Assembly (NCBI RefSeq): GCF_037042905.1
Contig: NC_087251.1
Coordinates: 39,434,001-39,494,000, forward strand
Direction of reading: 5' to 3'
Length of the DNA stretch: 60,000 nt
Origin: Lytechinus pictus
Lineage: Eukaryota
Below are positions 26,701 to 32,700 of this stretch, piece after piece. A program made the translations under genes and the position numbers. How positions within the stretch are numbered: the stretch's first letter is position 1; every line of letters begins with the position of its first letter. The notes beneath the pieces are model-generated. The model saw nothing but the letters and a program-made list of their open reading frames with translations. It had not been told where the DNA came from and made no database searches.

Positions 26701-29700
26701 CTTCGCTAAAATATCTAAAGATATACATATGCTTAGGGATGTTATAGAGTTTTTGGCCTGGAATGAAATGAGGATTTAGGGATATTATGTTGATATAATT
26801 TGTGGATTTTCCATTTTTCCTAGCACTAAGTTTCATCAAAATTTTACCTCCAAATTACTCATTTTTAGCTTTGTTATTACTGATATATGTTCTGGGACTC
26901 ATAAAAGTTTTACCTCCAAATTACTGGTTTCCAGCTTTCTTATTACTATGTGGAAGCGTCGTGGTGTAGCGGTTCTGACTCTCGCCTTGTAATCTGAGGG
27001 TTTTGTGTTTGAATCCCACCGCTGCCTAGCATCCTTTGCCACACTTTGCCACCTCTACCCAGGTGTTAAATGGGTACCCAGATTATTATTATTATTATTG
27101 TCATTATCTCCATTAGTCATGATTAAAACACATTATCACTTTTTATCAATGTCAATAATGTTATTTTTCATCACTGCTGTTTTCTTTGTTACATGTACAC
27201 TTACTACTAATGCTGACTGGTATCATTGGCCATTGTCATTAAATATACAGAACAATTTAAACATAATTACTTACATCAAAACAAATAAAAGTACCTCAAA
27301 AAATGCCTTGAAAATACCAAGGCTTCGAAAAGGGCTGTCTGCACCAGCCCAAGTTTTCAAATTAGCTCGCTATTTCTGATCCAGCAAATTATCCCGATCT
27401 GAACAATCTCGAGATTATTTGTAATGGAGACGCAATTATTGCGCTAGTTCACAGGATTAATCTCGAGATTGCAATCCCAAGTCAATTTGGGATTATTTGC
27501 AAAATAGCTTGCTATTTTACAAATTATCCCGCTAATTCGCAAGTGCAGACGCTCTTGGGATTATCTATTCACGGCGTCAGACCATATTGCATCGATGCCT
27601 CGCTCGAGCAGGAACTGCTCTTCTTGCGATGGTGGAGACAGGGTTTCCCAAATCTCGAGGTAAATCGCGAAGAGGACCGATCGGGCTAAAATCTCGAGAT
27701 TGAGCAAACTCGGGCTGGTGCAGCACCGCCTTATAAGTAGGCCTTAAGGTGCCTTAAGGCCAAGGCCGAGCATCAAGGCACTACAACACATATCTACTTA
27801 TATTTATTAGGTTATCGAACTCCCGCTGTTGAATCCGGAACTGTTTGAAAGAGTTGGAATCACACCACCCAAAGGCTGTCTGTTGTATGGTGCACCAGGT
27901 AAATAGTATGATGTACATATAGTCCTAATTTATTTTGTTTCTTCTTTCTTTAAATTCTATCATTCTTCTTGCTTTGTTTTGTTTGATCTTTCCTTCCTCT
28001 TCTCTCTTTTTTTCTTTCTTTTTATTTTTCTCTTTCTTTTTCACTCTTCCTTTCCCATATTGTTTGCTTATTGTTTACATATATATATATATATATATAT
28101 ATACATATATGTTATGTCTTATTTTTTCTTCTGAATATATATCTATTGTATTTCACTGCACATTAGTTTCATTACCCCTGAAGTATTTTATTTTGTTAGT
28201 CAACATACAATGTGCTCCATGTTCCCCCTCAGCAAACATTCATATCATTGTCTATGCTGCCATACTTTGGCAAAAGGAAGCAAGTTACAAAAGTATCATT
28301 TGTTGTAAGTGAACAATGTGTGTTCATCATTTACATAGGCATCAATGCAATTTAACAGCATATTTTTTTCAATATCTTTTCATAGAATGATAATTTCTTC
28401 CCCAAATTTTGCCTGATATTGCAACATACAAAGGGTGTTTCAGAAACAACAAATTTGACTGATGTGTCACTTGCTTCCTTTTGCCATAGTTGGGCAGTAC
28501 ATTCTCATATATAGATTCAGGTTAGGTGCAAAGACATTGCGTTTTCTATGGTCAGCGCAAACCAAAAAGAATAATAATAATAAAAGAAAACATCATTTCC
28601 ATATCTCAGTCAGTGATGTGGTTCCACATGTGGGAATTGTATGAATTGTGATCAAATGCACTGTTTAATTTTTTTTTCAATATCTCTAATTTTAATAATT
28701 TCAGGAACTGGGAAGACCTTGCTTGCGAGGGCAGTTGCCAGTCAGCTGGATGCAAATTTTCTCAAGGTATATAATATTGTATAATGCAGTGTGTCAGTTT
28801 ATCACATCTTTGTTATTGTAAGACATGTTGATGTTGTAACTTTTATCTTAGAACTTCATTCACATGTTATATAAGTATTTTGATCTACTGGTAATATTTC
28901 TTTGAAATCCTGTATGGCTTCAATCATATGCAGCAAATTTTTGATTACTTAGATTTCTTTAAAATCCAAGGAATCTTTTAAAATAGACCATGGTATTGAC
29001 ATGATATATTTGTAAAACCATAAATCGACCTTTTTTAAATAAAAAGAACAGCACAATAATTTCTTGAAGACAAAAATAATGAAAAAGACATAATATAGAG
29101 CGTGTTTCAAGGTAATCAACCTCATCTTCAGCCTGAAAATTTTACAGAGTTATTATTATTTGTACACTTATCTTCACACCTTTGTTTTATTTACCAGGTT
29201 GTTTTCAGTGCTATAGTATACAAGTGTATTAGTGAGAGTGCCCGTCTGATCTGAGAAATGTTGGCGAATGCTAGGGATCATGAACTTCATAGAATTCATA
29301 GAATAAAACTAAAACAAGATATTCATAGATATTTTCCCTCTTTATTGTAAATCACCTTTTTTTTGTTGACCAGGTTGTTTCCAGTGCTAAAGTAGACAAG
29401 TATATTAGTGAGAGCGCCCGTCTGATCAGGGAGATGTTAGTGTATGCTAGAGATCATGAACCTTGTAAAGTTCATTCAATATATTCTAAGGCGATTTTCC
29501 GATTGTAACTCGCCTTTTTTGTTGTTGACCAGGTTGTTTCCAGTGCTATAGTAGACAAGTATATTGGAGAGAGTGCCCGGCTGATCAGGGAGATGTTTGC
29601 CTACGCCAGGGATCATGAACCGTGTGTTGTCTTCATGGATGAGATCGATGCTATAGGAGGTAGGAGATTCTCAGAAGGCACCTCGGCTGATAGAGAGATC

Positions 29701-32700
29701 CAGAGAACTCTTATGGAGGTATGCCTAGTGTTTTGCTAATTCAATTCAATTCAGTTTATTCTATTGTCATGTGATCGTTAAAAACATACATTTCTATACA
29801 TAGCATAAGGGCAATTCCATAAAATATGTACGTCTGACCCCCTATATGTGGGACCTTAATGAAATTTTCTGTCTCTAATTTCTTGCTCTTTTGACAGTCT
29901 GTAATGTTCTCAAAGAACCATAACTCGGTGAGCTTAAGAAGTGAAGTAAGGCTTGAGAAAATAGGGGTCAGACGTACAAAAAGGTTGATCATTTATGGAA
30001 TTGCCCATAAGTGAACATAAATATGCATGGGAATGTATCACATTGAGGACACAAATCACTAATAAATAACAATTTAATACATACATGAATACATCAGAAA
30101 TAGAAATATAGAAATGCTAGAAGCTATATCGTTGATAGGTGACGCGACATGTGTTCCGGCTACAATTGCTCTGTGCTTTATTTCGTCCAAGATATAGGGT
30201 AAGGGCCAGGGTTGCAATAGGGTTTTATGTTAGGTTTGGGATAGGGTATAGTGTTAAATCCAGGGTTGAAGTTGGTCATTCAATTAGTGTGTGTAATTTA
30301 CAGCGGAGCAATTGTTACTGGAGCAATGTCATTGTAGGGTCTTTTTTTTTCAAGCAATAAGATACAGTCTCCTGTATGTGCTCATGTTTGTTGCCAATTT
30401 CCAGTGTGATAGATTTCCAGCTTAGATTTGAATGATTTCAAGCTGGGTTTTATGTAAATGTACCAAATTTAGATATATGATGATATGGTGACAATCAATT
30501 TTGAAGAAAAAAAAATCCCTCATGGAATCATTTCATGCTGCAAATGCACTGGACAGCATTTAAACCTTTCTTCTAAGATCATTGGTTGATGTTTGTTTTA
30601 TTCTTTAAAATCTTTAAAATCCTTTTTGTTTCATATCGTCAATGGAACTTCCCCCAGTTACAATAGGTCTTTGATGCATAATTACCAACCCTAAAAAAAT
30701 ATACGATCCTCATCCTCTAATCTCTTACAAATTCCAGTTGCTAAGAAATCATGCAGGGAACGGGCCTTTGCTCATGCAGGGTCTAACCTGTGGAATTCTC
30801 TCCGACAGAGTTTGAAAACCCAGACTTCAGTGACCACCTTCAAGGGCAACCTGAAAACATACCTGTATAAGAGTGCTTTTTGATAGACATTGAATTATTG
30901 TTCAGACATTTATTATATGTGAATAGCTTTTGTTGTTCTGCTCTGAAGCGCCTTGAGCATCTAATCAAGATGGAAAGTGCGCTCTACAAATCTCATGCAT
31001 TATTATTCTTCTCCACAGTTGTTGAATCAGATGGATGGTTTTGACACTCTCGGTAAAGTAAAGATCATTATGGCAACCAACAGACCTGATACGTTAGATC
31101 CTGCTCTTCTTAGACCGGGTAGACTTGATAGGAAGATTGGTAAGCTATCCAAATCTATTTCAATCTGATTTGTATGTCTTTGGAGGGTGAAAATTAGGAG
31201 TGTGCTTTTGTGCTATTCATGCATTTCCCAATACATGTGTCGCTGGTATTCATTATAATGGGAGGTCTACTTTTCTCTGCGAGTCCACAACCTCCGAGAT
31301 AGCTCATGCTTGCAAGTGAGATTTAACAGATTTAACAAAAATACTCAGGATTAATATGAGGTAATTTTCAATTCACAGTGATTACACAAAAACTAAACTA
31401 TGTGCACTTAAACTAGGTTTTCAAACATATTCTGAGAAATGAGTAGTCTATGTACATTTGATCATATTTCAACTTTAAATAAAAGAGCTATTTATAAGTT
31501 GAGATCAACTGAACAAAAAAGAAATCTCTAATTGGCTCGCTAATACATAAAAATTCGAAATTTTCATGACTGTTTCATACTTTTCTTCTCTTTCAGAAAT
31601 TCCACTTCCTAATGAGCAAGCCAGACTGGAGATTCTAAAGATCCATGCAGCTCCCATTACAAAGCATGGCGATATAGGTATGACATGTCATAACGCGCTC
31701 ATTACATTATTTCGCTATCAGTTAAAGAAAACCACATACAGTAAAGACCTGTTTTAGTGACAACCTTTTGTAACAATGAGGTTAAGACGCAAACAGTATT
31801 GACTTCTAAGGACATAAATGCATATATGTGTTGATGTATTCTTATAGAGTCAACCCTTAATGTGCAATATGAAATTGGATAGCTGGGGTGGGGTTAAAAG
31901 TGGTGCGAGACTTGAAGAAAGTCGGGAAATATTGCGCCCTGATCTTTTCGCATTACAGATGTGGAGGGGGGGGGTATCTAGACAGGGCCCAAAAATAGCA
32001 ATTACGAAAAAAAATTGCAGAGTAAAGATAACAAGGCTCTTGATTTAAGTGAGTAGAATTTCTTGTGGTTAGTACAGACCTGCCAACCAGTACGTTTTTG
32101 GCGTATTTAGTACGTTTTTGCAACCAAAATATTTTTTAAAAAATCGTAATTTATTATTTATTGAGAAAAATCATCTCTATATGTCTCTATTTCATAAAGC
32201 TTACACAAATATGGTTATTAGATCAATGTAATTTCAGGTAACTTGTTTTTTTTTTCAATCATTTTGTTAAAACCAGGGTGAGATATACACATGTTTAAAT
32301 GTTTTTTTTTTTCATCTGCAAGAGCAGTGCGCATTTTAGCTTGCATGCAGCTTGAGCGCCACGATGAGCGAGTGCGCCATGCATTTTATTATGAAATACA
32401 CTTTTTTGGGGAAAAATACAATTTTTCATTCCCAGAGGTTGGCAGGTCTGTTGGTAACCTAGATGCCACAAATTATATCTAAGATGATGCAATGATGAAC
32501 ATACAATGATGCTTGATAGTTGGAATACTCCTCTATGTTTTTTTTTTCTTATTAAGATAAGATTCTTTTTACTCTGCATTTCCCTGTAGATTTTGAAGCT
32601 GTAGTGAAGCTCTCAGATGGATTCAATGGTGCTGATCTCAGGAACGTTTGTACAGAAGCAGGTAAATAGGAGACTCAATGTGATTTCTGGGTTGTTTTTA

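Follow-up and report, generated by a model that had tools for sequence, protein, structure and literature searches.

A tandem triplication across the PSMC6 intron 7/exon 8 boundary in Lytechinus pictus, probably a decaying mirage

Introduction

The mirages described for the lancelet gene BflGb6 are tandem units of 150–160 bp, 81–100% identical, which consist of the 3′ end of an intron together with the 5′ portion of the following exon; 6 and 3 units were found on two haplotypes, many, not all, of the units keep their AG/GT, and splicing is undisturbed (PMC3087553). In the same paper unequal crossing-over was proposed, units measured 10–160 bp in the cases described, and somatic length instability was noted for the Adh3 mirage; mirages in other lancelet genes are reported in PMC3902484. 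Here, a structure of this type is described from the PSMC6 (RPT4) gene of the sea urchin Lytechinus pictus. The gene lies in a window (the whole stretch of DNA analysed, 60,000 nucleotides; G000:C7:39434001-39494000 of the 812-Mb genome) in which the end of intron 7 and the first half of exon 8 form a three-unit tandem repeat. Assembled mRNA lacks both upstream units; these are likely functionless and in decay, a reading to which we assign a probability of roughly 0.85.

Related phenomena are on record. The 37-bp variable number tandem repeat (VNTR) in intron 7 of human F7 contains identical pseudo-sites that remain silent, the authentic site being used (PMC1557585). Intronic and partial exon copies were catalogued with Exonize, the degenerate intronic ones being commoner than full-exon duplications (4–7% of vertebrate genes; PMC12343006). 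Intron gain by tandem genomic duplication has been described, small internal duplications being tolerated and the redundant part removed by splicing (PMC3265369, PMC3443670). No report on copies at the PSMC6 locus, on sea urchin mirages or on a link between PSMC6 and a poison exon was found in a literature search outside which most subscription papers lay.

Results

The repeated boundary

The PSMC6 model comprises 12 coding exons with GT-AG introns and a single terminal stop, corresponding to 389 amino acids. Residues 198–259 of human PSMC6/RPT4 matched the real exon 8 with E 2e-33, and this match and the 12-exon model established the gene and the exon named in an initial annotation of the stretch. 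Exon 8, which we take to encode the pore loop and the Walker B region, is followed by an intron of 1300 nt. PSMC6 occupies one locus, and in the genome-wide set of 15 protein matches no other locus was PSMC6-like above 51% identity; this set contained no PSMC6 retrocopy, and positions 29150–29720 were found at a single place in the genome.

The initial annotation had stated that the splice acceptor and the start of exon 8 occur three times, which was confirmed by three ACCAG/GTTGTT sites with spacings of 176 and 159 nt (Table 1); the AG of both upstream acceptors is intact in the window. Using blastn, 29345–29466 was aligned to 29503–29625 (87.8% over 123 nt, E 5e-39) and 29179–29285 to 29513–29620 (83.3% over 108 nt, E 4e-27), and copies 1 and 2 agree with each other at 78/93 of the first exon positions. 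Each repeat unit is composed of about 70–85 nt of intron end and about 92 nt of exon, the acceptor of exon 8 in use being itself one of the duplicated units. Within the window, blastn returned no copy of the other 11 of the 12 PSMC6 exons and no trace of the 3′ half of exon 8 or of its donor in the copies. Both copies leave the exon at an identical breakpoint and continue directly with intron-end sequence, and spacers A and B are mutually closest, the intron end of unit 1 being more distant from both (z values in Table 1).

Copies 1 and 2 have G34A in common, by which the glycine of KYIGE is altered. A common origin of the two copies, as proposed initially, is upheld by this change and the shared breakpoint. 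The proposal had been based on a shared AGT in place of GGA; its first base stands, and the rest was set aside, the real exon reading T at 29568 in contigs of a related organism (organism A). Of the 7 sites at which copy 1 and copy 2 both depart from the real exon, 6 are third codon positions (p 0.007). At 29568 and 29604 the organism A contigs of the real exon carry the base of the copies, so it is the real exon itself that changed or is polymorphic at these two sites; apart from G34A, the shared differences are weak evidence of common descent. Private changes of single copies fall on third positions in 4/12 cases, the pattern expected without protein constraint, and one further site differs in all three units.

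Assembled RNA

The comparison with sequencing data covered 6 of 24 runs (X1, X5, X9, X10, X14 and X20) as assembled contigs. In two studies, exon 7 is joined directly to the real exon 8 and both copies are skipped: one contig of 1523 nt from X9 (organism B) and one of 1195 nt from X20 (organism A), with 0 and 3 other letters on exon 8, respectively, cover 29531–29718 and have their loose ends in exon 7 and exon 9. The label of both runs as RNA is a guess, but the contigs are spliced and no retrocopy was found in the genome. With a single exon 7-8-9 contig in each run regular mRNA splicing is kept, and an essential single-copy gene does skip two intact acceptors, as had been annotated. X9 and X20 contigs were absent from copies 1–2, and X10 contigs from exon 7, copy 2 and exon 8; neither absence was counted as evidence.

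Splice signals and predicted outcomes

The three acceptors are located 431, 607 and 766 nt from the exon 7 donor, and exons reaching from them to the real donor would measure 521, 345 and 186 nt. Acceptor matrix scores were 14.3 and 13.4 for the copies and 1.7 for the real site, and are not comparable, because the matrix applied to the copies had been trained on a set that includes the real site. A strict branch-point consensus was not detected by scanning before any of the three acceptors. GAR triplets numbered 9 in the purine-rich 3′ half of the real exon, versus 2 and 0 in the spacers. Masking of the decoys by RNA structure was considered separately and rejected: the predicted unpaired fraction at −20..−1 was 0.55 for copy 1, 0.55 for copy 2 and 0.34 for the real acceptor.

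Donors were scored with a matrix of only 11 sites, PSMC6's own donors, the real ones being scored leave-one-out. The GT at 29465, from which a 91-nt exon had been proposed, does have the position and yields the length described; as a donor it is not credible, with 0.1 bits versus 3.4–10.1 for real donors and with 35% of 476 intronic GTs scoring as high. The best candidate, at 29400 (6.2), is present in the real exon too, where it is read through in the RNA contigs. On this scoring there is no credible donor behind either copy.

A stop more than 50 nt upstream of the last junction marks an mRNA for nonsense-mediated decay (NMD). Counted back from the last junction, the TAA on the copy 2 read-through would lie at 484 nt and the TGA of copy 1 at 738 nt, and a 91-nt cassette ending at the GT of 29465 would meet a stop at 374 nt; both stop codons and the open, in-frame state of copy 2 are as the initial annotation had them. 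Its further statement that any use of a copy gives a premature stop holds for read-through and is not strict, since 4/17 donor choices tested for a cassette keep the frame, all of them with weak donors. No cassette with functional splice sites at its two ends was found; the alternative-acceptor form does not need them.

The repeat in organism A

Over intron 7 and exon 7, the divergence between the window and the organism A DNA contigs is about 5–7% (31/586 in X5, 48/737 in X1). Contigs bridge copy 1 and copy 2 (29213–29454 and 29140–29407) as well as copy 2 and the real exon (29438–29573, 41 nt into the exon). The units moreover differ from one another by 13–19%, and with independent contigs across all copies an assembly artefact is effectively excluded. 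The triplication, for which the initial annotation had proposed a comparison with related species, is thus present in organism A and, as judged from these contigs, predates the split from it, so that the copies are not very young.

In organism A the acceptor CAG of copy 1 reads TGG (29195 C>T, 29196 A>G) in 2/2 X5 contigs and 1/2 X14 contigs. Many but not all units thus keep their signals, all three AGs being intact in the window and that of copy 1 lost in 3/4 covering organism A contigs. In both X5 and X14, 29476 is joined back to 29374, which corresponds to extra units of about 105 nt without the pyrimidine tract; one unit carries a 1-nt insertion at 29403, and three different X14 contigs run across spacer B versus one among those listed in X5. 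A number of units that varies between haplotypes is thus shown for organism A, with exact numbers not measurable from contigs. The summed depth on copy 2 was 4–6 times the single-copy level there; depth is not a copy number and was left unused.

Divergence from the window amounted to 18/242 (X5) and 22/262 (X14) in the copies, and to 5/186, 6/165 and 3/188 in the real exon. The X5 copies gave p 0.26 against the intron and p 0.03 against the real exon, the X14 copies p 0.07 against the real exon. The copies appear to diverge at the intron rate, with no conservation discernible above the intron background.

Copies at other splice boundaries of the genome

The control set consisted of 122 exon loci, namely 10 from the PSMC6-protein search (12 loci from the 15 matches minus 2 at PSMC6) and 22/22, 30/55, 30/57 and 30/49 matches of further searches. 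A same-strand local copy was present at 10/122 loci, of which L123, a simple repeat, was dropped to leave 9/122. By eye, all nine span a splice boundary, six on the donor side and three on the acceptor side, with the copies in the adjacent intron (Table 1). In its layout, as read from the sequence, L095 is a twin of PSMC6. Enrichment of duplications at exon edges was not shown: 35/244 flanking segments of 260 nt, with simple repeats unfiltered, also had a local copy, so special targeting of exon edges was not shown either. Survival of those duplications that cross just one boundary would be a simple explanation for the copies at splice edges.

Table 1 Coordinates of the PSMC6 repeat in the window and of boundary-spanning copies at control loci
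Feature	Location	Strand	Remarks
PSMC6 (RPT4) gene	23725..33538	+	ATG to TAA; exon model and exon 8 protein match
Exon 7, donor partner for all three acceptors	28705..28766	+	exon model; forms the 5′ loose ends of the two RNA contigs
Intron end and acceptor, unit 1	29123..29197	+	AG 29196-29197; start approximate; aligns to both spacers, z 4.6 and 2.4 vs shuffles
Copy 1, first ~92 nt of exon 8	29198..29289	+	75/93 identity to real exon (first 93 exon positions); in-frame TGA 29252; without credible donor
Spacer A, duplicated intron end and acceptor 2	29290..29373	+	AG 29372-29373; vs spacer B 51 identities, 13 mismatches, z 9.7
Copy 2, first ~92 nt of exon 8	29374..29466	+	81/93 identity to real exon (first 93 exon positions); open and in frame; weak GT 29465
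Spacer B, acceptor in use	29467..29532	+	AG 29531-29532; in-frame TAA 29506 on copy 2 read-through; RNA contigs begin here
Real exon 8, 186 nt	29533..29718	+	donor GAG/GTATGC; exon model, PSMC6 match, spliced contigs X9 and X20
Donor-side copy, 20S proteasome exon	L030 1027-1390		GT gone
Donor-side copy, chaperonin exon	L059 1412-1455		GT gone
Donor-side copy, nuclear-receptor exon	L075 1816-1863		GT kept
Donor-side copy, DEAD-family exon	L107 1816-1856		GT kept
Donor-side copy, DEAD-family exon	L117 1913-1959		GT kept
Exon end and donor of DEAD-family gene	L097 604-1447		53-bp minisatellite, ~15 units, F7-like
Nuclear-receptor zinc-finger exon, two upstream partial copies	L095 1708-2030 (G000:C9)	−	intact AGs; 82-85% identical
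Nuclear-receptor exon, upstream acceptor-side copy	L092 1188-1457		AG lost in nearer copy
Nuclear-receptor exon, upstream acceptor-side copy	L093 1045-1096		AG intact

Other features of the window

Introns 6 and 8 of PSMC6 contain high-copy repeats (28257–28497, 29806–30009, 30150–30330 and 30700–31010) at which contig depth reached tens of thousands; the repeats at 28257–28497 and 29806–30009 have terminal inverted repeats and the look of miniature inverted-repeat transposable elements. About 7 kb beyond the PSMC6 stop, an exon of PSMD8/RPN12 was located at 40577–40879 on the minus strand (E 4e-19 to PDB chains), so that two 19S proteasome genes are likely arranged tail to tail. Tandem arrays were found at 51111–52132 (110 nt × 9.3), 8276–8867 (160 nt × 3.7) and 55410–55909 (163 nt × 3.1). 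Broken open frames at 47202–48961 on the minus strand are presumably those of a decayed retroelement.

Discussion

Comparison with described systems

The PSMC6 repeat matches the lancelet mirage type already described. In common with the amphioxus cases, it is built of boundary-spanning tandem units of minisatellite-like size (159, 176 and about 105 nt, with 176 a little over the range on record). It differs from BflGb6 in occurring in another animal and in an essential single-copy proteasome gene, in its units of 159–176 bp and in being common to two related organisms. The units of the F7 VNTR likewise span a splice boundary, but there a donor is repeated downstream in a short unit, whereas in PSMC6 an acceptor is repeated upstream. 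Compared with the class catalogued by Exonize, a PSMC6 copy takes up 92/186 nt, half the exon, together with the intron end. Unlike in intron gain by tandem duplication, no new intron arose, the existing one having grown from about 431 to 766 nt.

Origin and skipping of the units

The repeat may have started with one duplication of about 160 bp (about 70 nt of intron end and 92 nt of exon), the downstream unit keeping the whole exon and its donor. Given that G34A and the breakpoint are common to copies 1 and 2, and that spacers A and B are mutually closest, the third unit would have come from unequal crossing-over or slippage between units, and the further units of organism A may have come about likewise.

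Skipping would be a matter of exon definition, an idea already raised in the initial annotation, which is quite probably its main cause: only the last acceptor pairs with a strong donor, over an exon of 186 nt, and the flanking introns are long (431–766 and 1300 nt). A switch to exon definition is described for introns above 200–250 nt, the sites nearest across the exon then being favoured (PMC9225289). The purine-rich 3′ half of the real exon may add to the choice of exon 8. Rare slips that end at the TAA of 29506 or the TGA of 29252 would be noise without a regulatory role, likely cleared by NMD.

Several observations weigh against a functionless, decaying repeat that is skipped by exon definition. 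With long introns the preference for an upstream 3′ site is only reduced, not abolished, according to PMC9225289, so complete skipping may require more than exon definition; the upstream acceptors are not weaker than the real one, with pyrimidines at 12/16 positions in all three. Copy 2 is open, in frame and has only 2–3 private amino-acid changes in 30 codons, and its AG is unchanged among the organism A rows listed. Short organism A contigs on copy 2 showed 2/77, 2/70 and 2/64 differences, near the real-exon rate, though their shortfall against the intron rate is not significant (p 0.56 in one case) and they are not independent. The three observations of copy 1 acceptor loss probably go back to a single mutational event. 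Assembled contigs drop rare variants, and the filter removes some records, which leaves rare junctions invisible; rare isoforms using the upstream acceptors may exist. The donor matrix has a small base, and the control loci, some of which overlap, are not independent of one another.

Alternative explanations

The copies could be mildly harmful decoys under selection for silencing, acceptor loss and changes in the copies being favoured. Consistent with this, an AG-null copy 1 is common in organism A, GT or AG is lost in the control copies at L030, L059 and L092, and the U content of the copies (0.33 and 0.29) exceeds that of the corresponding half of the real exon (0.26). However, both AGs are intact in the window despite 13–19% divergence, the copies at L093, L095 (two copies), L075, L107 and L117 retain their signals, and in these introns a drift towards A+T is to be expected, which makes such selection very improbable.

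It is very improbable that copy 2 was recruited as a regulated, stress-responsive poison acceptor, that is, an alternative 3′ splice site giving the 345-nt exon with the TAA of 29506, or a cassette, which would tune PSMC6 mRNA by sending it to NMD. The AG and pyrimidine tract of copy 2 are intact, its predicted stop lies far before the last junction, as in the poison exons treated in PMC11357089 (Smndc1), the AG and the short contigs (about 3% different) are little changed in organism A, and NMD targets would escape ordinary assemblies. On the other hand, the longer contigs over copies 1–2 diverge at the intron rate, and the same structure stands beside unrelated genes of the genome. Poison exons are described as highly conserved in PMC11357089; the PSMC6 copies, unlike these, have no good donor and no excess conservation, an acceptor is lost in the relative, assembled contigs contain no upstream junction, and the host is not a splicing regulator. 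The initial annotation had suggested that the structure could be a young control by alternative splicing coupled to NMD, a view that is not supported, given the missing donor, the intron-rate divergence, the lost AG of copy 1, the variable unit number and an age before the split from organism A. Were it true, the birth of the repeat would be tied to control of proteasome dosage; the evidence points away from this.

We regard it as highly unlikely that the copies are remnants of once complete, mutually exclusive exon 8 duplicates that later lost their 3′ halves. Past protein constraint could be read from the 6/7 shared differences at third positions, but two of the shared sites match the real exon of organism A and the private changes are unconstrained. 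From one common exit point in the exon the copies pass straight into intron-end sequence, the 3′ half and donor being untraceable in them, and in place of the full length, donor and frame of a tandem duplicated coding exon they have 92/186 nt and, in copy 1, a stop.

Conclusions

As a single case, the probably decaying mirage of PSMC6 carries little weight, being one more mirage. The locus would offer a clean natural substrate for the study of splice-site choice, with three near-identical acceptors in an essential single-copy gene, to which organism A adds a natural acceptor-null allele and a variable number of units. The rough rate of 9/122 suggests that many such natural competitions may exist in this genome, which would be of use for work on exon definition and on intron gain by duplication.

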